Shown piece after piece: positions 11,096 through 63,361 of a stretch of DNA of 64,000 nucleotides. Positions within the stretch are counted from its first letter, which is position 1; each line of letters opens with the position of its first letter. The stretch comes from Eledone cirrhosa (Eukaryota), in NCBI GenBank assembly GCA_964016885.1, contig OZ024741.1, forward strand, positions 299,956,001 through 300,020,000. The letters run 5' to 3'. A program made the translations under genes and the position numbers. Under the pieces are notes generated by a model, which saw only the letters and a program-made list of their open reading frames with translations, made no database searches and was not told the origin of the DNA.

Positions 11096-11220
11096 ATGTA
11101 TATATAATGTATTTTGCAATACACTTTATGCTTAATTAAAAGCATTTTGAAGACCGTAAGCTATTGTTTTAAAGTAGTGACAAATTCACTCACTTTGATC
11201 TCAGCAAACAGGGGAGATAA

Positions 11221-11262
11221 GCCGACATGACATGTTTCGCTTTTGTTGAAGCTTATCAAGGC
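11221..11262 (-). ncRNA. Type I hammerhead, U3-A8 variant
   Basis: gcc TTGATAA gctt caacaa aagc GAAAC atgtcat GTC ggc. Confidence 0.85.
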
Positions 11263-11680
11263 CAACTACCCCGCCTGTCTACTGAGATCAATGATGTGAT
11301 ATTCTTATAGAAATCTAGTAAATAATCAGGAGCTGATTATGTAGAGCGGTTGTTGGTCAGGCATAAATTAAAAATTAGAATTGGAGCTCTGAAATAGCAA
11401 TATATATATGGATGTATATTTGCAGAGATCAAAGTGAGTGAATTTGTAACTACTTTAAAACAATAGCTTACGGTCTTCAAAATGCTTTTAATTAAGCATA
11501 AAGTGTAGTGCAAAATACATTATATATACATCCATATATATATTGCTATTTCAGAGCTCCAATTCTAATTTTTAATTTCTGCCTGACCAACAACCGCTCT
11601 GCATAATCAGCTCCTGATTATTTACTAGATTTCTATAAGAATATAACATCATTGATCTCAGTAGACAGGCGCGTTAGTTG

Positions 11681-11722
11681 GCCTTGATAAGCTTCAACAA
11701 AAGCGAAACATGTCATGTCGGC
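11681..11722 (+). ncRNA. Type I hammerhead, U3-A8 variant
   Basis: Same motif as 11221. Distal stem I extension ttgatctcagtagacagg / cctgttt(t/g)ctgagatcaa. Confidence 0.85.
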
Positions 11723-11996
11723 TTATCTCCCCTGTTTTCTGAGATCAAAGTGAGTGAATTTGTCACTACTTTAAAACAATAGCTTACGGTCTTTAAAATG
11801 CTTTTAATTAAGCATAAAGTGTAGTGCAAAATACATTATATATACATCCATATATATATTGCTATTTCAGAGCTCCAATTCTAATTTTTAATTTCTGCCT
11901 GACCAACAACCGCTCTGCATAATCAGCTCCTGATTATTTACTAGATTTCTATAGGAATATAACATCATTGATCTCAGTAGACAGGCGCGTTAGTTG

Positions 11997-12038
11997 GCCT
12001 TGATAAGCTTCAACAAAAGCGAAACATATCATGTCGGC
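11997..12038 (+). ncRNA. Type I hammerhead, U3-A8 variant
   Basis: Same motif with one change in loop III (atatcat). Confidence 0.85.
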
Positions 12039-12194
12039 TTATCTCCCCTGTTTGCTGAGATCAAAGTGAGTGAATTTGTCACTACTTTAAAACAATAGCT
12101 TACGGTTTTCAAAATGCTTTTAATTAAGCATAAAGTGTATTGCAAAATACATTATATATACATCCATATATATATTGGTATTTCAGAGCTCCAA

Positions 12195-12248
<54 letters not shown>

Positions 12249-12989: not shown

Positions 12990-15900
12990 GGGATAACAGG
13001 TTATCGTTATAGGTAGTCCACTTAGATGTAGTCCAGTTAGATTACTCTGTGCTGTGGATGGTATTAACGTATGGCTTAGTTTGTCCAACAAGACGTTTCC
13101 ATACTGATACTGCGAATTCGCGGTGCTTTCTATGTAGTTTAGACTTGGAGTAATAATAATTCAAGAAAGAAGAGTAAAGCCCTTATTGGCTATACATTAA
13201 GGGCTTTACTCACATTGATGACAATTGTTTCTTTGATCTGGTAGGTGTAGAGTTCGCTAATCGCTTGATGTTGCGTCAATCGATCTCCAATACTTTGTTT
13301 ATAACCAGTCATTTCATCAGGGCGTGCGAAAGTGAGGAAGATACTCCAGACATGGCTTTTATAGAGGAGTTGTATTAAACCAGAACAATAATATCAATAA
13401 TAAAAATAACTAGATCCTGAATAGTTAGAATAATAACATCAGTTTAAGTAAAAAATAGAGTATAATGATAAATCTAGCATATTAAACGAACTGATATAAT
13501 ACAGATGTATGAAATTGACATGTGAAAACTGCTATAGGGTACATTAGATTTAGTATTAATGTGTTGAAGAGATAACTGATAAAATGTTCTTAGAGTCAGG
13601 ATTTAGGAGTAATTATGAGGTATATACGTGTGCTGTAGGTCTATAAACACACTAGCAATAAACCGGAGATTGATTTATAGTTTGACAGATAAGTATTTTC
13701 GTTGTATCACCTTAGTGAGAATGATAGAGTGGGTGCATAGAAATATATGGTTCTTATGTGGTATTAAGTGAGGTTGTAGATTCGGTAGTTAAAGGTTTAG
13801 GTGGCCTATTGTAAAAGTTGGTATTGTTAGTTCGAATGATGGGGTTTACTTTACACCACACCAATAACAAATCGTGTATAAATAAGACAATAATAACAAC
13901 AATAATAGAGATAATAAAAGTAATAAAATAGTAAAATATGCATGGTTGATAGAGATAACATGATGAATAATATTAGGGATACATTGAGATGATCATAATA
14001 ATAATAAGAAGAAAATAAGATTTCAAGGAGTGTAGGAGTAATAAGATAATGTACTTAGAATTAAGTTCATCAGTTAGAGATCGTCAGTGCTAATATGAGA
14101 TACGTAGATATAATTGTTTGGTCCGAAGGATTAAACAACAGCAAAGATGGGATTGATTTATGGGCTGACAAGATAATTGTAGACATTACTGCCCCATCCT
14201 AGTGGTATATATATGTAGGGAGGCTAGAAAGAGTTTACAGAAGGTTATGGTTCTGAAGTGTGCTGTGTGAAAATGCGAATTTCATATGTTAAATGCTAAG
14301 TGATATTCCATTAACATAGGGGATGCTGGTTCGAATAACGGTGGTTTCTAGATAGGGTAATCGCACAAATTAAGGGAAAACTAGAAATAAATTTATGGGG
14401 TAACACTATCGAAGCAATAGAATGGTTCAATAGAACAAGAAATAGAGAAACATACAACTTCATACAACTTGACATAAATGATTACTATGCATCCATATCC
14501 CCAGTCACCCTAGATAAAGCGCTAACATTTGCCCAAAATAACTCAGACCTTACCTGAGATGAAATTAAAATAATACTAGCCGCTAGAAGGACTATCATAA
14601 TAGCTTCGATATCAAAATGGGATCGAAGGAGTCAGCGCAAATAACGGATGTTGTGGGGATATTTATAGCACACAACCTACATAAAGAATTTAATAACCTC
14701 CAAGGAGGAATTTATAGAGACGAAACGCTCCTTATAGCTAAAAACTTAAATGACCAGAACATGGAAAGATTATGAAAACACATTAGAACATTCTTAACAA
14801 AACTAGGCCTAGATATTACTTACGAATTCTAAAAAGGCAAACTTTCTAGACGTAACTCTAAACCTAAACACATGATTAATAGAACCCTTCCACAAAAATA
14901 ATGAGAATCTAGCTTACATTAGTTATAACTTGAACAACACCCCGATCCATAATAAACTCCTTAGCAGGTAGTGTATCCCTTAGAATATCACGCCTATCCT
15001 CAAACCAAGTAACTATAAATGAACATGGTAATTATTATAACGCAGCATTACATAAGGCTGGACACGGGAAAAGCTGCAGTTTATAACAGATAAGGACAAC
15101 ACAAACAAACCCATTAACACCAACACTAACCGTTCATACAAAAATAAAGGTAACAGGACGAGGCATCTTCAACTCCTCTATAAGAACTAAACTACCTCCT
15201 ACGTTTTTAAAACTAATAGATAAACACTTCCCTACATCGCATATATATCATAAAATCTTCAATAGAAAACCTTTAAAACTTTCATACTCTACTGCAGCCA
15301 ACATTTAATCGTACATACGCAAGATCAACCACAAATATACATCTAAGAAACTACCCCACCTATACGCAACATAGTACTAAACACAAACACATTACTTATC
15401 ACAACCACAAACGCATAGGAATACACCACAGCAAAACTTCAATAGGCATGAATCACAACCCGCACATAACATTTTCCAAAACCGCAATATGAAAGCTGCC
15501 CGGAATAATACTTCAAACTGCAATTATCCCCTACCATAGAAGTGCCCATTAGCGAATAGGTACCTAGATTCGAGCCTAGTGTACATGTGTATTGTAAACT
15601 CGAGCAATTCCACATGGCACTATATTGGATCCGCCGCGGGTGTTTTAAAAAACAGGTGGTATATACAGAGACATTCTATGAAGAACCGTGCAGTGGTAAA
15701 TTCTACAACCCTCACCAATAAAATATGGCAACTTAAGGACAAAAACCTTGATTACAATATTAGCTGGTCGAATTTAGCGGCCGCAAAGGCCTATAGCAAC
15801 GGTATGTCCCATTGTGGGCTTTGCAGCCTTGAACTGCTACCTATCTTAAGGAACGATAAAATGCTACTCAACAGCAAAATAGAAAGGTCAATTTTCTGCA

Positions 15901-24758: not shown

Positions 24759-25332
24759 CACACACATACATACATAGCCATACAATTATACACATACATA
24801 TACATACATATCACAAACACGCACAACTAAATACAAACACACACATATATATATACGTTGTGTAAAGCTTATTGTTAGATAATTCACATGAACCATTATA
24901 TGCATCATTACATATAGTGATTTAATGATTATTTTCATTGATCTTTTACCCCAGGAACTTGTTGAGTACTCTAAATCTGCTATAAGCATTTATACCCTTT
25001 GCTAAATATATATTTTTTTATTTATTAGTTGTCGTATTCCTAACTTTTTATTTTCATTTTTATTTTTATTTTTATTTTTATATATACAAAATTTTTATAA
25101 TATATACAATATTTATTTTATAATATTTATGCTCTTTCTCATATATATATATATTGAGTTATATATGTAGATGTGTGTGTGTGTGTGTGTATGTACGTAT
25201 CTGTATGTATATATGTGTGTGTAGGTATATATGTGTATGTGAGTATGTATGTGTATGTATGTGTATGTGTATATATATATATATTATGAAAGTAAAACAA
25301 AGAAGCCTTCAATACATCAAAGGTCTTTATTA

Positions 25333-25370
25333 GCCAACAATGTTTCGTCCTATTAAGGACTCATCAGGGC
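25333..25370 (-). ncRNA. Type I hammerhead ribozyme
   Basis: gcc CTGATGA gtcc ttaata ggac GAAAC att GTT ggc, then t-AATAAA. Confidence 0.88.
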
Positions 25371-25863
25371 AATTAAAACAACAAGAAGTATAATCGGCCA
25401 ATACAAGCCGAAAACTCCGAAGAATATGGAGTGTACATACACTAAAGTATTGCAAGATTATGGGTAAAAATATATAATAAAAATCACTAAGGAGGTGTAT
25501 AATATTTAGAACCATATTACAAATATAGTCCAAAGGAAAACAAATCTAGAGCTAAACAAAGGTTGTTATATAGAGCGGGAATTATATATAGTACTATATA
25601 ATATAATATAATATACTTGTAACAATATTAAAATTACAATAAAAATTAAAAGGTACAATATACATATGTATATATGTACGCACACGTACGCACATATACA
25701 CATACATCAATAAACATATCCATCTTCAACAGCACAAAATAAACCTTATTAAGAGTTTAAATATAAATAAGCATGATAGGAATAAAAATAATAATAATAA
25801 TAATAATAATACGTATATCTAATATACATGAGGTAATAATATGATATGATTATAAGTAGCACA

Positions 25864-26666: not shown

Positions 26667-29351
26667 TATAATATATAATAAACTATACAATTATATACTA
26701 TATAATATAATATAATAGATAATATCCGGTTAATTTACACAAACTATATAGATGTCACAATAATACTATAATAATAAAATAATAACATATATAATATATA
26801 ATATATAATGGCATGCAAGTTAACAAATCAATTCATATAGAGTTACAGAGTAGGTGAGAAAAAAATATAAATTGTACAATACCCAAAATTATGATGGTAC
26901 AAAAATATAAACATCTTACATGATATATAAAATTTAACATATCATAATAGTACATATAATCAACGGTAAGTAATAAGGATCGATAGTACAATAACAAATA
27001 CAATATAAAATAATTAACATAATATAATTACTTATAATTACAAGGTTGGTAAACAGACATATATGTGGATGAGTGAGTAAGGGCCAGACAGTAAATAGAA
27101 TGCACAGTAGTATTAATAAATAAATAAATAAATAAATAGAATCAACCGGAAATTAAAAAACAAAAACAAAAGTATATACTTAGGTCTCACATGCAGTTAA
27201 GTAAAAACTTAGGAAACAACCCCGGTGATTGACTCGAAAACCCTATTTGATAAATTAATATTAAAAATATTTAAAATATCTGATAAGGCAATACAATATT
27301 AGCTATGGTTTAAGTAATCAAAATTTATAAACGTTAATATTTCACTACAAATCTATATATATAAAGGAATGAAATTTTCTACTATCATTTACATAACGAT
27401 ATCTAAAAAAACTGACTTAAGCAGACTTATGATAGGCTAATAGGGACAGAAAAAAAGAAATGTATGGAGGATACAAAGGAGCATAAAATCATAGTCAATA
27501 TACTATATTAAATAATAGAAAGGAGCGTAAAAGAGGGGGGGATTAAATATAATCATAATCTATTTGAAGGGGTTGACAATAAGTTTATGTGCGCATGGGG
27601 GAAGGGAGGGGGAGAAAGTGGGTGGGGTGGGTGGTTATCCAAAGAAGAATCCAAATAAAATAAAATGAAATAAAATACAATAATGTAAAATATATAATTA
27701 GATATATACTCATAAGGTGTTAATAGTGAACATTTAATGCGTAAGAAGATAGATATGGTATAGTAGCCAAAAGATTATGAGAGCTAGAATAAAGAGTTGT
27801 CAAAAACCAATGATAATAATGATGATAATAATGGTGGTAAACTAAAAGAACCTAAACTAAAAAATAAGTAATGGAATATATCAGCTAATGGATACAATTT
27901 ATACTACTAGAACCTTTAGGTTTATAATAAAAGTAAGAATTAGAAATAGCGTGGGGGCAAGAAGAGAATATCTCAGACTTTCTATTAAGTAAGGATTCGC
28001 TAGAGAAAATTATAGAGTGTGTCTCGAGGATACAGAGATTACAAAATTTAGTATGTGTAGAAAGGTTATGAGAGCGTGCTACTAAACGCCAATTAAGGCT
28101 ATATGGTATATTAGCCCCCTTAAGATCCCAGATATAGTGTGCTAAAGAAGTAGAATTCTTAAACTTAACATGTTTGAAATTAGAGATATGAGAATTAAAC
28201 CTAGTCTTAAAAGTGTTAGATGTAGAGTCTATATAAGTTCTATTAGAGGAATTAGTTATAACTACGCAAGCATAGACGATGTTCTTAGAGAGGCAGTTAC
28301 CGTTTAAAGGGCAGTTAGCACTCACTCTACAGTTACACTTCCGGGTGCTATTGGTTGGCTGAAGTAGTGATGCATTACACGTAGGATTGCTATTAGATAA
28401 GGTCTGTTCTAGTGGTAAGGCATTTCCAGATCTGTTCAGACCAGTAGTATGTAGAGAGGAGAATCGATCCCTAATTTTCCTATTGTTAGTGCTAGCTAAA
28501 TGAGAACTAATATTAGGGGTGGTAGAGAATGAAAGTTTAATAACAATTTTATTAAAAATACTATGGTATTTATGAGAAGGGGGAGATTTTTCTCTAAGAT
28601 AGAAAAAAAAGACCTAGGGATATTAGTTAATACTTCCTGATTATATGGCGGGTTAAAATAAGTATTTAGTCTCCTTCTATTTTTATCCTTACCGACTCTA
28701 CCATTATCTAATATCCCACTATTAAGACTAGGGTTACTACAAGGATTAGTTAAAACCGCATTTTTAGAATCAGCCAAAATCCCATTAAGTCTCTTACTGT
28801 TTCTACCTCCAGTAGATCTGCTGTCGTCTGGAATCCCATCAAAAGGATTAGGGCCAATAATAGGATCACTAGAAGCAACATTATTAGAATTAGATCTAGC
28901 AAAATTATCACTCAGAGGGTTCGACTTGTTTCCTTGAGGTATTATATTCCCTATTACGAGTCCCGTGGGTTAACTTATGGATGGGTTTAGATACACCTAT
29001 GTAATTGTTACGGTTATTATGCTTCCTACTCCTTTTTATTCCTATCATGCTTAATTATATTTAAACTCTTAATAAGGTTTAATTTGTGCTGTTGAAGATG
29101 GATATGTGTATTGATGTATGTGTATATGTGCATACGTGTGCGTACATATATACATATGTATATTGTATCTTTTAATTTTTATTGTAATTTTAATATTGTT
29201 ACAAGTATATTATATTATATAGTACTATATATAATTCCCCCTCTATATAACCACCTTTGTTTAGCTCTAGATTTTTTTTGTGTATGTACACTCCATATTC
29301 TTCGGAGTTTTCGGCTTGTATTGGCCGATTATACTTCTTGTTGTTTTAATT

Positions 29352-29389
29352 GCCCTGATGAGTCCTTAATAGGACGAAACATTTTTGGC
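29352..29389 (+). ncRNA. Type I hammerhead (inverted-arm copy, stem III mutated)
   Basis: gcc CTGATGA gtcc ttaata ggac GAAAC att TTT ggc. Confidence 0.8.
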
Positions 29390-29702
29390 TAATAAAGATC
29401 TTTGATGTATTAAAGGCTTCTTTGTTTTACTTTCATAATTCTTCGGCTCTGTTTAATTACATTGAGCTATACCTTTTACTGTCATTTCTATAATACGAAG
29501 AGGGTGTTTAACTCCAACACGCTCCAGTATTTTAATCCTTATATATATATATATATTTATTTTAGAGTTAAATAAGGTTCATATGAATTATCTAAGAATC
29601 AGTTTTACACACATATATATTTATGTGTGTGTTTGTATTTGGCTGTGCGTGTTTGTGATATGTATGTATATGTATGTGTATAATTGTATGGCTATGTATG
29701 TA

Positions 29703-32078: not shown

Positions 32079-33014
32079 TTGAATGGGTTGTATTACCCGT
32101 ATAGAAAGCCGAATGATACGCTTAATTACATAAGTAAGTATTCCAACCATCCTGTAAGCATAATCAAGAGCCTGGTAAGAAACGTTTCGTTGAGGCTTTC
32201 CCGTCTTTCCACCAACGAGCGCATTTTCAACGACCATTCCACTTATTACAATGAAGCTCTTGCTCGAAGTGGATTTGTCGATAAGGTAGCATATACAGTG
32301 TACGAAAATAGACCTAGAAGAAATAGATCCCGTCGCATTTGTTGGTTTAACCCACCATATAATATGGAGGTGGCCACACCATTAGCTAAGATCTTTCTTT
32401 CCCTTATTACGAAGCATTTTCCCCCAGCACATAAATATAGTAAAATTATTAATAGAAATACTATTAAAATGTCTTACTCTACGACTCCTAACTTTGCACA
32501 TAACATCACAGCTTCAAATTTAGCTAAACTACCTAGCCGTAGGAACACGTGCAACCCTGTAGGTAGTACTAACTGTAATTGTAGCAATCGGGCTGATTGC
32601 CCCCTATCCGGGAAATGCCTCTCTAGTAACATTGTCTACAAATGTAAGTTTGTAACACCCACGTCACGTAGGGCCTACATAGGGTTAACCGCCAATAGTT
32701 TCAAGCAGCGTCTTTACATGCATACCCATTCTTTTCGTTACCCTCTAAGAAGGAATATGACGTCACTTTCAGCTTATATCTGGAGTCTAAAAGACAACCA
32801 CCCCCAATATAAGTTACACTGGGAGATCCTAGCTAGGGCTAGATCGTATAACGGAAATAAAAGACCATGTGACTTCTGCGCCGCTGAGGCCCTGGAAATA
32901 CTCTACGCTACAGACCACATCTTAAACAAAAAATCTGAGGCAATTTCGGCTTGTAAACATAAATTGCACAAAACTTTCCTGTATTACAGCCCCACGTTAT
33001 ACCTTAACGGATAG
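32079..33014 (+). CDS. PLE RT-thumb, linker and GIY-YIG endonuclease (open partial frame)
   Basis: PYRKPN, YISKYSNHP, WFNPPY, MSYSTTPN, CNC..CPLSGKCL, IVYKC..YIGLT..FKQR..H, CDFC, LNKKSE..CKH. Confidence 0.9.
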   Translation: MNGLYYPYRKPNDTLNYISKYSNHPVSIIKSLVRNVSLRLSRLSTNERIFNDHSTYYNEALARSGFVDKVAYTVYENRPRRNRSRRICWFNPPYNMEVATPLAKIFLSLITKHFPPAHKYSKIINRNTIKMSYSTTPNFAHNITASNLAKLPSRRNTCNPVGSTNCNCSNRADCPLSGKCLSSNIVYKCKFVTPTSRRAYIGLTANSFKQRLYMHTHSFRYPLRRNMTSLSAYIWSLKDNHPQYKLHWEILARARSYNGNKRPCDFCAAEALEILYATDHILNKKSEAISACKHKLHKTFLYYSPTLYLNG

Positions 33015-34135: not shown

Positions 34136-34489
34136 AAGTATGACCCCGACGGAAGAGCTCTGCCCTCGGGGTCATACTTTTTCCTATTTCCCACTCTACT
34201 ACCCTAAGTATTGAGTAATCTGGTGCGTTATGGTCCATGTGATTCCTTACCTCAACTCCTTTGTTATATATATATATATATATATATACATGCACATGCA
34301 GATATTCATATGTACAAACCACCAGGAAGTAGTTCAGAGGCAGAAATAACTAAATAAAGAAGATCAAAAATATTCAAAAAATGTATAAGAAAATCAAAAT
34401 CCAATAAAATGAAAAATAAAGTCATAAAGGGACGGTTTGACAACGAAACGGGGAAAGAAAATATGAATACAAACAACGTAAAAATAAAT

Positions 34490-34706
34490 AATTGTTACTA
34501 GATTTAGGCATAAGGCCAGCAATTAACCAGTACATTACTGGTGAATTATTTTATTGACACCGTAAGGATGAAAGGCAAAGTTAACCTCGGCGGGATTTGA
34601 ACTCAATATAATTGTTTCTACTTTAAGCACAAGGCCAGTAATTACCCAGTGCATTACTGGAACTTTATTTTATCGACCCCGTAAGGATGAAAGGCGAAGT
34701 CAACTA
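34490..34706 (-). mobile_element. Two tandem partial SINE copies
   Basis: aaggccag...cattactgg...cgtaaggatgaaaggc occurs twice. Confidence 0.85.
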
Positions 34707-36685: not shown

Positions 36686-36744
<59 letters not shown>

Positions 36745-36800
36745 AAAATATGGGGAGAAGAATACTGCATGGTTGCACATGGATAACATGTTATAAAATG

Positions 36801-36871
36801 AGTCCCTCATCAGTGATGTGCCAACGGTCATAGGTATTTCATTGCATTAAAAATCATATACCTAACGTTGG
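36801..36871 (-). ncRNA. Candidate non-circularly permuted hammerhead (copy A1)
   Basis: ccaacg tt aggtaT A tgattt ttaatgcaat GAAA tacct atgac cgttgg c acatca CTGATGA gggact. Confidence 0.6.
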
Positions 36872-37336
36872 TGCTATAATAACTAAAATAAGTTATTAGG
36901 ATAATTAAAACGCGTAAAGCGAGTGAGACAAGTAAACAACACAGAGGAAAGCTAACCGAAGATAGGAAGATACACAAGCTACATAGGTATTCTATCAGTA
37001 TAAGCTGGGTGAATATATGAGCGAGTAAGAATAGACCTTTCGAGATGAATCCGATGTAAGAAAGAAGGAAAATCGTTTTCGTCGCGAACGGGGGGAAGTA
37101 AGAAGGGGAGAAACAGTGAGTGAGTGAGTGAGTGGAAGTGCGAGGAAGAGGTCAGTAGAGAGAACGTGTTAACTGACATGACAGAGGGGACGAAAGAAAG
37201 TAAGAGAAACAGAGAGAACGAGGGAGCAGTAAGAGAGAGAGAGAGAAAAACAGAATCGCAGTTTAGGTAAATATATGTGAAAAATATGGGGAGAAGAATA
37301 CTGCATGGTTGCACATGGATAACATGTTATAAAATG

Positions 37337-37407
37337 AGTCCCTCATCAGTGATTTGCCAACGGTCATAGGTATTTCATTGCATTAAAAATCATATACCTC
37401 ACGTTGG
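37337..37407 (-). ncRNA. Candidate non-circularly permuted hammerhead (copy A2)
   Basis: As A1 but with a perfect stem I tgattt/aaatca. Confidence 0.62.
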
Positions 37408-37491
37408 TATATATTTATATATATTTATGTGTATATGTATGTATGTGTGTATGTCTGTATGTCTGTGTATGTGTATGTATATATATGTGTA

Positions 37492-42993: not shown

Positions 42994-45900
42994 TAGAGTT
43001 GAGATGGAGGGTCTGTGGTTTTTCTCACATCTGGTTGGTCTCTGAATGTTACTTGTTTTATATGGAAAAAGTGGCTCGAAATGCCAGGTTTTTCGAGAAG
43101 TAATTTGATTGGTTGGTCAATAATTATAATAAATTTCGCGCCAGTTCGCGTTACAAAGTTCTTCAAACAAGGTGTCACAGGTTGTTTTTTCATATATGAG
43201 TGTTTGAATGTTTTTTACTTAAAAAAAGGGGGACTCACGAAGGCTTTTTTTAAATAAACGTAATTTGATTGGTTATAAATGAAATTATGGCTGTCATGTG
43301 AACAAGTTTTCATTAAATTTTCGCGCCCTTATTTGTAAATCTATTCTGTAGCCTTTTTAGAGAATTTTATGACAAGCAAAAGATAATGGTCAAGAGAAAT
43401 TGGATGGGAGAATTGTTCTGGCGCAGGAAATATGGTTAGTACGCTGTGGTGTCAGAATTCAGATTTTCTATTGAAGTAACGAAAGTAAAGATGTGTATGT
43501 TTATTTGTGTCCGTGTGTGTGTGTGTGGGGGTGGTGGTGTATTGGAAGATACCACATGCACAACAAATAACAAAAAAGTAACAAAACGTCCAACATACCC
43601 CAGCAAAACTATAACGATAATCCCAGAAACCGTAGGAAAAACTATAACCCTACTAACAAAAACCGAAGATCCCAGAACACAAGGCAGGACCCGATCCGCA
43701 GATCATAACCCACATAAAAACTATTCCAAAACCGTAGACCCCTGCCCACACAGAGCCTGTTCCAAAACCGTATATCCCATCCCACACAAAGGAACAAAAT
43801 CTACAACCCGGACTATCAACAAACCGGACCTCAATACGTCCGAAACATCTATACAAGATCACACAACAACAGGGGAAATACCATTAGATATAATAATACC
43901 ATTGAAAAAACATTCCAGAATAATCATTTTTTAGACCAAGGCTACAGGACCCACGTCACCCGGTGGCACAAACCGATTTTGAAAAACCGAAAATAATCAA
44001 CCTTTCAAATACAAACCTCTCAGCCAAACAAGTAAAAATTATCTCCAAAGGACTTAAATTCACACCAACACCACAATACTCTAACTCCAATGAGATAAAT
44101 GACGATATCTCACAATTCTGTAGAAAATTACGTCTCACAGAGGAATTCTTTGACAAGGAGCATAACGCCGAATCAATTGTACGGAATAAAAGCAGCTACA
44201 ACCCAACAAAGGGTAGAAAGAGAGTTCTGGACAAATTTTGTGACCACATAGTAACTTTCCCATACCATGAACTACCGCAACCTAAACCCAAGCCCAACAC
44301 GAATCGAAGGGAATGGGAGATTATCCATGAACTAAAAAACAATACGGACATTATAATTAAGGAAGCGGACAAGGGAAGTACTGTTGTCATTATGGAGGCT
44401 GAAAAATATAAAAATGCTATGTTCTCTCTCTTACAAAATACTAATTACTATGAAAGAGTATAAAACTACCAGCTATCAAAAACAATGACCAGATTAAACA
44501 CACTGATTTATCGATACCAGGAAAACCTAACTAAAAAGGAACGCGATTATTTAACACATGTTGAAATACAAAACCAGCAACCTTTCCGGACTTCCGAAGA
44601 TCCACAGGTGTAAAATAATTAACGATGCCTGTAAACAATCCACCTCAGCCTGTGTGAACATACAATACCCTGCAGACCTTAAATTAAAACCTATTGTAGC
44701 GGGTGCACAATGTGAAACACACAGACTGAGGAACTTTATAGACATACTACTAAAACCAATTCTCAAACACATACGAAGTCTTGTAAGAGACGATCTGGGC
44801 CTCTTAAACCACCTCTCCAAACATGTCAACAACGACACTATTATTGTTTCTTTCGATGTAGTGAATCTCTACACAACGATCCCACACCAATACGGACTAG
44901 AAAAGCTTCATCACCGAGGGATTAAAATTCATCTTACAGAACAACTTTTTTGATTTCGATGGCAGTACTTACAAGCAAATATCGGGGACTGCGATGGGTA
45001 CAAAAGCCACTCCAACTTATGCCAACTTAGTCATAGCATACTTAGAAGTCCAGATATATGAACAGTCCAAATCAAAATACGGATTGAACTTCCACAAATA
45101 TTTATCAGAGGATTGGAAACGCTACTTGGATGATTGTCTCATTCTTTGGTCCCACACACTCGACCAACTGAAGGATTTAAAAAACTTAATAAACGGCATC
45201 AATAACCACATCTAATTCTCAATGGAATACAGCCAAGATCAACTCCCATTTCGGGACATCTTAATCTCTAAAAAAGACACAAATATTGAAACTGACATAC
45301 TCTAAACCCAACAGATTCCAAACAATACCTGTTATTCTCCATCAACCATCCAAAGCACACGAAGACGAACATTCCTTTTAACCTAGCAAGAAGTATTTGC
45401 ACAATTGTCTCCAATTATGAAACACGAAATAAAAGACTTCAAGAATTAAAGGAAATTCTACTCGAAAGAGGGTACCCACCATTACTAATAAATAATGGAA
45501 TAGAAAAGGTTAAAGCAATAGGCATTGATGAATTACGAAAACAGAAACAAATTCAATGTACGTCCAATATTCTATCATATATCTCAACACACAACCCAAG
45601 AAATGCGGAAGCTTACAACACTATTCACAAGAACATCCCACTACTAAAACAAACCCCAAGAATGAAAAAGGCCCTTGAAACACACAAAATAATCAAAAGC
45701 AAATGACAACCGAAATCACTGAAAACATTACTCACCAATGCCAAATTACCTACCACAAACCCACAACCAAGTGTCAAAAAATGTGGTCGCTCTAATTGTG
45801 GAACCTGCACTCACCTCATTGAAGGCAACAAGTATACATTTAAATCAGGACAAAATGTTACTGTAAAAAATCACTTCACTTGCTCATCAAAAATCTAATT

Positions 45901-46360
45901 TATGCCATTAAATGTAAAGTATGCAATGAAGATTATATAGGACGAACTAAACTCACACTCAGAAACAGAATGACAGTTCATCGCCAACAATTACGAGATC
46001 CAACCACGAGACAGATACCACTAAGCGCACATCTAGACATATGCGCAAGTAATAAGACACCCAAATTCCAAGTCTTCCCATTTTACCTTTGCGCTAACAT
46101 TACAACAGAACAAATACGAATAAATAAGTAAAATATGTTTATTCAAAAATATGGTTTAATATACATTATGTCAACACCATAACATGCTAACCATCCAAAC
46201 AGACACATACACACACATACGTAACACCTACTTTAGAAAATAAAAACCCGAACTAAATAAACCTTAACATACGTTTGCACTGACAATACAACAGAACAAA
46301 TACGAATAAGTAAGGAAAATATGTTCATTCAAAAATATTCCTACTAAAGGTATCATTGTC

Positions 46361-46417
<57 letters not shown>

Positions 46418-47019
46418 ATATATATATTCTCTTCATCTTAACATGCCAACCATACTCCCATACACAAAACACCCATACGCACATAACAACCCCTACCCCC
46501 ACACACACAACTCCCTCCCCCATTTCTACTAATAGAATCACTTTCCTACACACATATATACACACACACAAAATATATATATTCTCTCCATCTTAACATA
46601 CTCCCACACATACACACATAACACCCATATACACACACACACACAACTCCCTCACCCATTTCTACTAATAGAACCATCTTTCAACACACACACACACAAG
46701 CACACAGATAAACATACACATCTTTACTTTCTTTACATCAATAGAATATCTGAATTCTGACACACCAGCGAACTAACCATATTCACTGAACCAGAACAAT
46801 TCTCCCATCCAATTTCTCTTGACCATTATCTTTTGCTTGTCAAGAAATTCTCTAAAAAGGCTACAGAATAGATTTCCAAATAAGGGCGCGAAATTTAATG
46901 AAAACTTGTTCACGTGACAGCCATAATTTCATTTATAACCAATTAAATTACGTTTATTAAAAAAAAGCCTTCGTGAGCCCCCTTTTTTTAAGTAAAAAGA
47001 AATTCAAACACACACACAC

Positions 47020-47062
<43 letters not shown>

Positions 47063-47596
47063 GGACACAAATAAACATATATATCTTTACTTTCTTTATT
47101 CAATAGAAAATCTGAATTCTGACACCCTAGCGAACTAACCATATTCACTGAACCAGAACAATTCTCCCATCCAATTTCTCTTGACCATTATCTTTTACTT
47201 GTCATAAAATTCTCTAAAAAGGCTACAGAATAGATTTCCAAATAAGGGCGCGAAAATTTAATGAAAACTTGTTCACCTGACAGCCATAATTTCATTTATA
47301 ACCAATCAAATTACGTTTATTAAAAAAAAGCCTACGTGAGCCTCCTTTTTTTTTGTTTTAAGTAAAAAGAAATTCAAACACTCATATATGAACAAAACAA
47401 CCTGTGACCCCCCCCCCCCTTGTTTGAAGAACTTTGTAACGCGAACTGGCTCGAAATTTATTATAATTATTGACCAACCAATCAAATTACTTCTCGAAAA
47501 ACCTGGCATTTCGAGCCACTTTTTCCATATAAAACAAGTAACATTCAGAGACCAACCAGATTTGAGAAAAACCACAGACCCTCCATCTCAACACTA

Positions 47597-60234: not shown

Positions 60235-62880
60235 AGAGAAAATAAAGAGCGTTTATAACATCAATCAATTTTTATTCACTGACAGTGTTTCATACATACC
60301 ATGGGGCAGGACTCATCAGAGCGTTGAAAACAAAAATACAATAATGAAGATAAGCTCTACCGACCTACATCATAAGAACAATAGATATATGGTACAGGAT
60401 CATAGGATAATAGTAAAAATGGAGATGATACATAATAGGGCTGTTAGTCAGAGTAAGGAAAAATAAGAAAAATAAGAAAAACTAAAATAAACTGAAGTAA
60501 TCTCACAAGATATACAAGGAATCAGTCAAGGCGATAAAGAAAAAAGAAATATTTAAAACAAATAAATAAATAAAATGAAATAAAAATAAAATAATAATAA
60601 ATAAAATAAAAAATAATAATAATAATTAATTAAACAATAATTAAAAAATTAAAAATTAATAATTAAAAAATAATTTTAAAAATGAAAAAGATATTAAAAA
60701 AAATATATATAAAAAAATAAAAACATATATATATTAAAAAAAAATAATAATTAAAAATAATTTAAAATAATTTAAAATAATAAAAAAAAAAAAATAAATA
60801 AAAAAAATCCATATTAAAAACTAATTAAAAAACTAATTAAAAAATATATATTTAACAAAATAATTAACAAGAGAGAGGCATAGATGCATATGAGGGCACA
60901 CAAACACAAAGAGAGAAAGCATGCATTGGTCAGTCGAATAGGCCAGATGATTTCCCATGACAAAGAGTCTTATGTCCTATAGTTTCACAGGCTGAGCCAC
61001 AGAGCACTCGAATATTACAGGTGTAAAAGTAGGGATATCCAGCAGATAAATTACAATAGGCATCAGCCGGGGTGTCATATAGAAAAGTGCCATGTAAGCC
61101 CTTAAAGTATGGTAATAAGGGTCAGAGGGGATTTAGTATTCTCCAAATTCAGCACGGTTAGGGTAACCATAAAATAGTGGAGCTGTGCGGATAAGAGGTG
61201 TCAGTCTTGCATAATGATGAGTACAGCACAGGCAGAAGCAGGAACACAAGCAAAGCAGGGTAAGTGTATAGAAGAAGCTGAAGCAGTCAATTCACAACGA
61301 ACAATTCATAACAGACAGTTCATACATGGTTTAAACCATGTTTGAGGCATATCCGGCAAGGGGAACAACAAACCTATATATATGGTCAGTAGATGGTAAC
61401 TCACGAAATTTCACAACATATATAGACACATGTATATATATATATATCCTTATACATCCACATGTACGTATCATAACGTATGGTACTATATGTTATGAGC
61501 CGGTGTTCAAATCAAAATCCTCATATAAGTAGTGCTCCAGATTGCGGTATTATACTATTCTCAATCACTCACAGTAATGTACATCTAATTCCGTGTTCTG
61601 AGGGTATTATTGTCCGAACATTACATGAACACACATCATAGCAGTAGCTTGTTGACTATTCACATGAATCACGTGGTTAGACAAACAAACTTAAAATATA
61701 ATATATAATATAACATGACATATAACATGACATATAAAATATACAAGTGTACAGACCGAATCAGTGATTCTGCCCAGCGCAACTGTGAGTCAATACACTT
61801 ATACATGTGTTCATTAACTAAACAAGACAGCGACCATATGATATAGCTCCGCAAAAATTAAACAATGACAATAAACACATACGTTACAAATGGTGACGTA
61901 AAGGGCACACATAGTGGATAACTCCCTGTTACTCACGACTAAATACGTTTCTAAGGCTAAGGAAGGGAGACTCCTCTACCACTTCATCTATGAAATCAAA
62001 AATTCAAAAAACTCAAAAGTTTAGACCGTAGAAAAAATAATAATAAACTCCTACACCGTATATATTAGCTGTATTTCTAAGGCAATGGACGGGAGGCTAT
62101 TCTACCACTTCATCTATGAGATCAGAAATCCAATAGTAAATTCCTACACCGTGTATATTAGCCAGTATATTAGCCAGAGTAACAATAACATTCGTGTATA
62201 TACAAATAAATATTATCAGACCTATAAGGAGTTATGCTATTAACAGATCTCCAAAACAGTCAAACTGATAATACGAAAGCCATTAAATCGTTATTAACCT
62301 AGTGTAAGTTTATATGACTATAATCAACTGTATTAAAATTATTATGGGTTATGTTATAAACATAATTCTTAGCCTATAGGTTTAACGGCAGACAAACGGA
62401 ATCCTAATATATAAGTATAGGTAGGTGGTCTATCCCCGCGGTTGGAGACATAGTCATTGCCGAATGGGAAGAGTGAGCAGTATACGTAAGGCATCCGACA
62501 AGAAGGGTCATTGCATGGGGCTAGATACTCTCATAGGAATTATCTTGGATCAAGCTGGATGGGACTGGTTAATTCATTACCTCACTAATACAATACTTTC
62601 CATTATCCAGGAGTTACGCCCATTAGGATACAATAGTATTCATCAGTGAACAAATGCTCGATTAATTGAAGATAGAATTCCCTCCATACAAAGGGAGCAT
62701 AGATGGGTTGAAGGATTAAGGAGTCAAAGATTTGAAGGATTACTACGGAGTTATAAGAGAGGAGTGAGTGATACCCAGCCTATCTAGTTAACTGGCTTAA
62801 AGTAGTAGAAGGAACTAAGGATCATGTGTGGACAAGAATAACATATTTCAGTTTTCCTATTGAGTAGGTTGCCTCTAGAG
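60235..62880 (-). mobile_element. Severely 5'-truncated Naiad-like PLE: last ~30 codons plus ~2.5-kb 3' UTR
   Basis: Minus strand at ~62790-62880 reads NLLNRKTEICYSCPHMILSSFYYFKP, matching LLNRKSEIFSSCPHAISNSYFYYKP of ORF 27885-28325. HHR at its 3' end. Confidence 0.75.
60277..60323 (-). ncRNA. Type I hammerhead ribozyme (stem II partly decayed)
   Basis: cgct CTGATGA gtcctgcc ccat ggtatgtat GAAAC act GTC agtg AATAAA. Confidence 0.8.
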
Positions 62881-62902
62881 TATATTATATATATATATAT
62901 AT

Positions 62903-63155
62903 ATATGAATAAAAATAGACCGAGAAACAGGAAAAGTCCGTCATCAGTAGTCTGCTGATTCTCATTGGTATTTCTTCGAATTAAAGACTAGATACCTAAA
63001 CTCAGTGCGAGCGATAACTAAATTAAGTTATCGGGAGAGAGGAAAGTGAACAAACAAAAATACGAACCACAGCGAAGGGAAAAATATATGCGAATGAAAA
63101 ATGGCATGCTGCGTTGTTGCGAATATGAACATATGAATAAAAATAGACCGAGAAA
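62903..63155 (-). mobile_element. ORF-less 228-bp unit with 25-bp terminal direct repeat carrying a rearranged hammerhead-like motif
   Basis: atatgaataaaaatagaccgagaaa at 62903 and 63131. (TA)n flank. Confidence 0.7.
62935..63005 (-). ncRNA. Candidate non-circularly permuted hammerhead (copy B)
   Basis: ctgagt tt aggtaT C tagtct ttaattcgaa GAAA tacca atgag aatcag c agacta CTGATGA cggact. Confidence 0.62.
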
Positions 63156-63221
63156 ATATATACATATTGATGATTTCTAAAGAATGAAACAGTTCTAGTC
63201 CTATAGAATCTCATCTATATT

Positions 63222-63273
<52 letters not shown>

Positions 63274-63314
63274 TATATAAATATATATATATATATATAA
63301 ATATTTATATATAT

Positions 63315-63361
<47 letters not shown>

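Follow-up and report, generated by a model that had tools for sequence, protein, structure and literature searches.

The window, a stretch of 64,000 nucleotides from Eledone cirrhosa (assembly GCA_964016885.1, contig OZ024741.1, positions 299,956,001 to 300,020,000), contains near its downstream end a minus-strand insertion at 62903-63155. It is bounded by an exact 25-base repeat (62903-62927 and 63131-63155; 25/25 bases; offset 228), and represents a whole insertion of 1.1 units with a 25-base terminal redundancy, belonging as an internally deleted member to a subfamily with units of 508-546 bp and the stem I sequence TAGTC/GACTA. The 3′ end of its RNA, at approximately 62903-62908, abuts a (TA)n tract (62884-62907), and a second (TA)n tract (63225-63357) lies on the opposite side of what is a composite insertion. 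Through an 11-base TA-rich filler the unit is joined head to head to a plus-strand, 5′-truncated piece of another abundant repeat (63166-63225), which ends in the second (TA)n tract and carries a hammerhead-like motif of type I order, read by eye. Fuller copies of this very abundant repeat occur at loci L039, L155 and L255, and Rfam gives a hammerhead score neither to the piece at 63166-63225 nor to the copy at L039. A companion copy of the insertion (36742-37408, minus strand; 536-bp subfamily; offset 536) extends over 1.25 units. A search within the window identified a 97-base block common to both places (73% identity; e-value: 7e-4), and each has a hairpin on its minus strand (63012-63033 and 36877-36898), in which two pairs differ by changes to both partners. 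The longest ATG-started ORFs in the tripled 228- and 536-base units comprise 56 and 66 codons, respectively. A sequence-only reading of this DNA had described both places as 1.x-copy tandems beside (TA)n without an ORF, with offsets of 228 and 536 bp and a hairpin preserved by two compensatory pairs; both do abut (TA)n, their ORFs do not exceed 66 codons, and the offsets and the minus-strand hairpin sequence are as it quoted them.

Other repeats are scattered through the window. Sub-threshold Rfam hammerhead matches are located at 29349-29393 (+), 25329-25373 (-), 11203-11273 (-), 11666-11740 (+) and 11982-12056 (+). Two of these fall inside a 316-base tandem repeat with an inverted partner (11419-12201), which is probably a canonical retrozyme. 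Remnants of Penelope-like GIY-YIG endonuclease frames were detected by tblastn at 15252-15656, 28200-28559, 32442-32711 and 45788-46047, and partial tandem repeats are present at 46684-47352 (period 362) and 34488-34704 (period 119).

The 228-base unit is a one-off and not a family. When the genome (3.0 Gb; 1,796 contigs) was searched with this unit, 1,511 candidates were returned, of which 40 were scored; nearly all of the latter match bases 79-228, extend into bases 1-52 or 1-80, and part from the query at a single point. A genome-unique junction of an approximately 300-base deletion lies at 63055-63060, and the 23-base junction word has a single match genome-wide at up to one mismatch, namely the window itself. 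In related loci the flanks of this junction are 279-319 bases apart in 19/20 measurements and 160 bases apart in the remaining one, and are never contiguous. Nine relatives have a measurable period of 508-546 bases, and the units of other subfamilies range at least from 492 to 640 bases among the loci listed. A separate subfamily defined by a 228-base unit, yielding a small circle of its own and having nothing but the ribozyme in common with the 536 family, would find its support in the offset, which is real in the window, and in locus L005, which has an equal period. However, the junction is unique and the relatives hold the additional 279-319 bases, while L005 lacks part of the motif, reached its period via different deletions in an inverted insertion, and owes its selection to the short, 228-base query. 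Furthermore, when the 293-base central part of L011, a full-length relative, is aligned with the middle of the 536-bp unit, the local score is 87, as against 26.1 ± 3.6 (maximum 44) in 200 dinucleotide shuffles, so that more than the structured RNA is conserved between the two. Such a subfamily is therefore very improbable, and the earlier proposals of a 228-bp subfamily, of conservation restricted to the structured RNA and of an approximately 228-nt circle as a family trait are not borne out. In three contig runs from one sample, none of the contig pieces listed spans the deletion junction, and coverage of the unique flank, low and even, points to DNA; the deletion may date from copying, from a later event or from assembly. 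Joints that seem to go back by 220 bases were rejected as circles, as they correspond to relatives continuing beyond the 25-base redundancy. The copy at 62903-63155 carries little weight alone; its lesson is that the unit length is to be taken from the family and not from one locus.

The conserved structured region covers approximately 102 nt (62936-63037, minus strand) and contains a hammerhead-like motif, present once in this copy, in which the core blocks follow an unusual order. Block S (62985-62996) comprises a stem III strand, U16.1, C17 and a stem I strand (62985-62990); block G (62967-62975) comprises N11.1 (62975), GAAA and a stem III strand; and block C (62940-62953) comprises a stem I strand (62948-62953), CUGAUGA (62941-62947) and N10.1 (62940). 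The 5′ to 3′ order S, G, C with CUGAnGA and GAAA is that of the type-SGC hammerhead. By analogy with the published examples (PMC10085705), cleavage is predicted between 62991 and 62990 in this copy and after 37393 and 36857 in the companion copy, which has two S blocks. A pattern built on the S-G-C order has 9,291 exact matches genome-wide, as against 0 for the reversed control; the stem I of the present subfamily accounts for 255, with 0 in the control. A pattern that specifies a different stem III sequence and leaves stem I free has 145 matches, as against 8 for its control. The invariance of the core and of stem III is in part imposed by the search pattern. The earlier idea of a family with a permuted ribozyme stands as regards a dispersed permuted hammerhead motif, and requires correction as regards its extent, which had been put at 71 nt. 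Young subfamilies share 94-97% identity, whereas old, decayed SGC families (L190-L209 and L210-L255) share approximately 75-83% identity and have other stem I and stem III sequences, indicating that the origin of the motif well predates the young subfamilies. Rfam searches of the whole window and of 62880-63240 returned no hammerhead at the motif, only weak unrelated matches. Scans with the pattern gave 23 stretches in metagenomes and two in viruses, in none of which the architecture was seen on inspection, and which were read as chance. Five metagenome contigs (L122, L128, L134, L136 and L138) have in common a structured-looking non-coding stretch with a pattern match; it was rejected as an SGC motif because stem I is missing.

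For the fold, 36 motifs were chosen by hand from approximately 110 to span the subfamilies and were aligned. In the proposed structure 92.6% of the 1,296 cells pair (shuffles: 84.9 ± 0.4) and 17/36 pairs change on both sides, figures that are to be read with the kinship of the motifs and the derivation of the structure from them in mind, such that covariation counts are inflated and shuffle counts are not probabilities. When the structure is slid by 1-3 columns, pairing falls to 25-47%. Stem I flanks N17 and C3 directly, as in type SGC, is 96.8% paired and covaries, with 3/6 pairs changing on both sides. A more independent test is provided by the second-stem-III set, where stem I lies outside the search pattern: in the first 30 of the 145 matches, stem I pairs in 126/180 cells, as against 86.5 ± 6.7 after shuffling (0/2,000). 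Stem III, with the A15.1-U16.1 pair of type SGC, is invariant in the main set through the choice of pattern, and is changed on both sides in L144, L148 and L149 and in the 145-match set. Position 17 is A or C in 36/36 motifs and position 7 is T or C; G at position 17 is never seen among these motifs or the family-1 matches, most searches having excluded G.

The motif differs from type SGC in lacking a true stem II helix. The strands after CUGAnGA and before GAAA form no helix and share one pair only (10.1-11.1), which is U-A, G-U, A-U or G-C in 24/36 motifs and is absent from 12/36, including most of the window subfamily (C.A or A.A). In the usual hammerhead this pair is G10.1-C11.1, and a variant with the canonical pair occurs in L108, L043 and many matches of the stem I pattern of the window subfamily. 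The partner of both stem II strands is instead a block lying upstream, and a four-way junction results, closed by helix A (G-C in 21 and A-U in 10 of the 36 motifs), hairpin P5 and helix B. Beyond a 3-base bulge and tandem G-A positions, stem III is prolonged by helix P4, for which covariation is strong. At this internal loop the sequence resembles a kink-turn (G in 36, A in 35, A in 34 and G in 30 of the 36 motifs, with the 3-base bulge); 30/36 motifs fit the sequence, and the window subfamily has U for one G, giving A-U at the second position. Eckert et al. raised the problem of how far stem III lies from the stem I-II side, and a kink in stem III would solve it. Nested folding gives unremarkable z-scores for the window copy (-1.16 for the motif strand and -2.21 for the other strand) and z-scores of -0.97 to -3.06 overall, with a method that cannot represent a pseudoknot; P4, P5 and helix A fold locally in these predictions. 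Taken together, the pairing and register argue strongly for a conserved fold derived from the hammerhead, a conclusion in which we place high confidence.

In the window copy, the hairpin at 63012-63033 corresponds to P5, one arm of the four-way junction. Helix A is formed by 63034-63037 with 62936-62939 and helix B by 63007-63010 with 62976-62979, each with one pair lost through changes that are absent from most relatives. The kink-turn-like loop (62961-62966 with 62997-62999) lies at the far end of stem III and leads into P4 (63000-63005 with 62955-62960; overall 62955-63005) at its distal end, and C at N10.1 (62940) stands opposite A11.1 as a mismatch. The core and stem I are otherwise kept; among the 30 best matches, ten retain core, stem I, helix A and helix B together. 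Its single motif and two weakened helices probably leave the window copy unable to produce a monomer, which would make it a dead end.

The insertions are dispersed, non-coding units in tandem or partial tandem with one ribozyme motif per unit, as in non-LTR retrozymes. In the 536 family, 29 of 30 full-unit copies stop at one and the same base in front of (TA)n, a count biased by the 536 query itself ending at that site, while the 5′ ends are scattered (lengths 533-799). Copies in other subfamilies terminate at one or two CAUAU-like sites rich in U, and the motif adjoins the preferred 3′ ends, just upstream of them. Tandem copies have units 526-637 bases apart, and most loci hold one motif. An inverted partner, with the 3′ ends facing out, accompanies 11/29 relatives of the window copy. 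Partial tandems, inverted segments and microsatellite targets are traits of Penelope-like elements (PLEs), as set out in PMC8557442. Moreover, an SGC unit has been joined head to head to a truncated PLE on two independent occasions, at L091 (near-identically duplicated 1 Mb away as L092) and at L095. The element concerned (L091:2936-5700, L092, L095:4860-7400) is C-rich, with Cx4Cx2C before a C-terminal GIY-YIG; it has a canonical-order hammerhead-like motif of its own, and lies antisense to the SGC motifs in L091 and L092. Mobilization by a Penelope-like enzyme is thereby made very likely, although the autonomous partner that the sequence-only reading had envisaged, a PLE with the motif in its pseudo-LTR, was encountered at 0/17 loci read for approximately 5 kb upstream; the two antisense chimeras involve a PLE bearing its own canonical-order motif. 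The description as a dispersed, non-coding, retrozyme-like family has held: further copies are numerous, and they are not those of a fixed-ended DNA transposon or satellite.

The likely origin of the motif is the 3′ end of Naiad elements. In the supplement of PMC8557442, the SGC layout is visible by eye at the 3′ end of three of the five cephalopod consensus sequences. Stem I, stem III, P4, both helices A and B, the kink-turn letters and a hairpin with the same loop can be made out at the ends of Naiad_Ovul and Naiad_Obim; in Naiad_Esco the block order is recognizable by eye, as are stem I, stem III and P4. The layout was not seen by eye in Naiad_Omin and Naiad_Adux, both marked incomplete, or in Naiad-1_Skow. 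Craig et al. (2021; PMC8557442) detected no hammerhead of canonical form among Naiads and flagged eight 'half cores'; two of the three layout-bearing Naiads are among those flagged 'HHR_half_core'. The two units in the window have no ORF above 66 codons, as against the ORF with N-terminal GIY-YIG and C-terminal RT that characterizes Naiad. Neither an intact autonomous element nor a Naiad ORF with the motif was found at any of the 17 loci for which approximately 5 kb upstream was read, and a DNA search with the Naiad-like motif locus matched only the flank of that locus. Motif pairs 2-3 kb apart were considered as pseudo-LTRs, and none of the ten regions checked fits. Since the young subfamilies are 94-97% identical, cephalopod Naiads are long inactive (Craig et al., PMC8557442) and no Naiad ORF lies upstream, the young subfamilies likely use a Penelope-like helper other than Naiad. 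The two chimeras, thin as their number is, may point to a helper of Neptune type.

We favor, as the reading we consider probable with some reserve, that the window copy is a one-off deleted member of a non-coding family of approximately 500-640-base units with an S-G-C core predicted to self-cleave, likely copied into (TA)n by Penelope-like enzymes. A transcript of more than one unit would fold into the pseudoknot, with stems I and III closing the core, the single 10.1-11.1 pair stacked on the four-way junction in place of stem II, and the kink-turn bending stem III back to stem I. If successive units were each cut after N17, a monomer would come free, and its ligation would yield a circle, as happens with known retrozymes of animals. 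The endonuclease/RT of a Penelope-like element would then nick (TA)n and prime at U-rich CAUAU, approximately 85 or 125-130 bases past the cut site; copying more than once round would give the 1.x-unit copies, and priming of the second end on the same or another RNA would give the inverted and head-to-head joins. Catalytic activity in the family is reasonably probable, and a circular intermediate is favored by a narrower balance. To explain copies of more than one unit that extend across the predicted cut site, either a circle or an uncleaved multimer is required, and most copies of the 536 family do cross it. Among 30 truncated copies, four join TA at the cut site and eight do so eight bases further on; in 11 the stem I strand is retained and the junctions are others, and in seven the break falls inside this strand. 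As a sign of cleavage, the 5′ ends of 908 truncated copies were set aside as confounded, since the pile-ups at the cut site and eight bases beyond both coincide with TA microhomologies; the 5′ ends thus give no cleavage sign. Fold-back inverted junctions at the predicted cut site were observed at L161/L162 and at G000:C1:293138684-293138782, and others lie elsewhere.

The same observations may be accommodated by a conserved, hammerhead-derived RNA that does not cut and acts as a recognition or packaging signal for a Penelope-like RT, perhaps via a kink-turn-binding protein, with the copies above one unit derived from uncleaved read-through transcripts instead of circles. This would agree with the stem II pair missing in 12/36 motifs, with 5′ ends showing no clear excess at the cut site, with an RT that crosses this site in most copies, and with a motif placed just upstream of the preferred 3′ ends. 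It sits poorly, however, with core letters and core-closing helices kept in exact register across unrelated stems, old families and Naiad ends, with the lack of G at position 17 (in the 36 motifs and family-1 matches, most searches having excluded G), and with a variant that has G10.1-C11.1 (L108); we regard it as unlikely, yet deserving of serious consideration. An ordinary circularly permuted hammerhead, assembled across neighboring units or in an RNA dimer and scrambled in appearance only, is improbable. Tandem copies with units 526-637 apart exist, and dimer-dependent hammerheads are known in animal retrozymes (PMC7229834), but tandems here read S-G-C-S-G-C without a C-G-S run within two units, most loci hold a single motif, and all partner strands lie within 102 bases, where P4, P5 and helix A fold locally. 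Still less credible is a DNA-based element (MITE or satellite) or a chance likeness to the hammerhead. The missing Rfam match, which might speak for it, is to be set against Rfam hammerhead models that represent the canonical block orders; the copies are dispersed, keep one end constant while the other varies, and include inversions and chimeras, and pattern controls stand at 0.

Should the motif of the favored, self-cleaving reading cut, the type-SGC hammerhead would move from environmental RNA to animal retroelements, a core architecture without conventional stem II would be added to those known, and a possible answer would be at hand as to why Naiads seemed to proliferate without a hammerhead. 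Censuses of type I-III hammerheads and retrozymes would, moreover, be missing thousands of copies per genome. A bolder extension, against which we hold the odds to be somewhat weighted, is that animal genomes harbor a large group of active hammerheads that are not circularly permuted and have been overlooked, with stem II rebuilt as a four-way junction and a pseudoknot closed by a kink-turn that a host kink-turn-binding protein may switch. This would be the missing Naiad ribozyme, and would here have outlived the Naiads as thousands of circular-RNA retrozymes hijacking other Penelope-like enzymes. No prior report of SGC motifs in animal genomes was found in the open literature, including the accessible part of PMC13725137, with subscription papers and some supplements lying outside that scope; within the open literature searched, the term 'type-SGC' appears only in PMC10085705, and no paper treats hammerhead, Penelope and kink-turn together.

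By its sequence the family is retrozyme-like and SGC-ordered, yet it falls outside the type I definition of non-LTR retrozymes, given the order S-G-C and no Rfam hammerhead match, and outside the stem II definition of type SGC. Eckert et al. (2023; PMC10085705) named the S-G-C order type SGC and demonstrated cleavage for HRIMA-1 and an SGC variant, with published rates of 0.007-0.19 per minute; their examples come from metatranscriptomes, and none from the genomes of known organisms. The Eledone family resembles these in the S-G-C order, CUGAnGA, GAAA, the hammerhead register of stems I and III and a pseudoknotted topology. Published SGC hammerheads have a true stem II, a linker of approximately 3 bases, a stem I-II helix and demonstrated activity, whereas this family occurs in thousands of copies in the genome, has a stem II reduced to one pair and set on a four-way junction whose formation depends on an upstream block, ends stem III in a kink-turn-like loop, and is predicted to self-cleave. 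At the level of sequence, and in keeping with the kink-turn definition (PMC5499556), a 3-base bulge follows a canonical helix (stem III) and is succeeded by tandem G-A and A-G in 30/36 motifs; the window subfamily departs from it with A-U at the second position. Metazoan non-LTR retrozymes, proposed to derive from and depend on PLEs (PMC7229834; 10.64898/2026.07.22.740005), are likewise non-coding and low in GC, occur in tandem or partial tandem and have one hammerhead-type motif per unit. They possess type I hammerheads, units of approximately 150-450 bases and circles that have been shown (Cervera and de la Pena 2020; Li et al. 2026), whereas the SGC family has the S-G-C order, units of approximately 500-640 bases and putative circles. 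With Naiad (PMC8557442) the family shares (TA)n targets, partial tandems and inverted segments; Naiads encode an endonuclease and an RT, whereas the SGC family encodes nothing.
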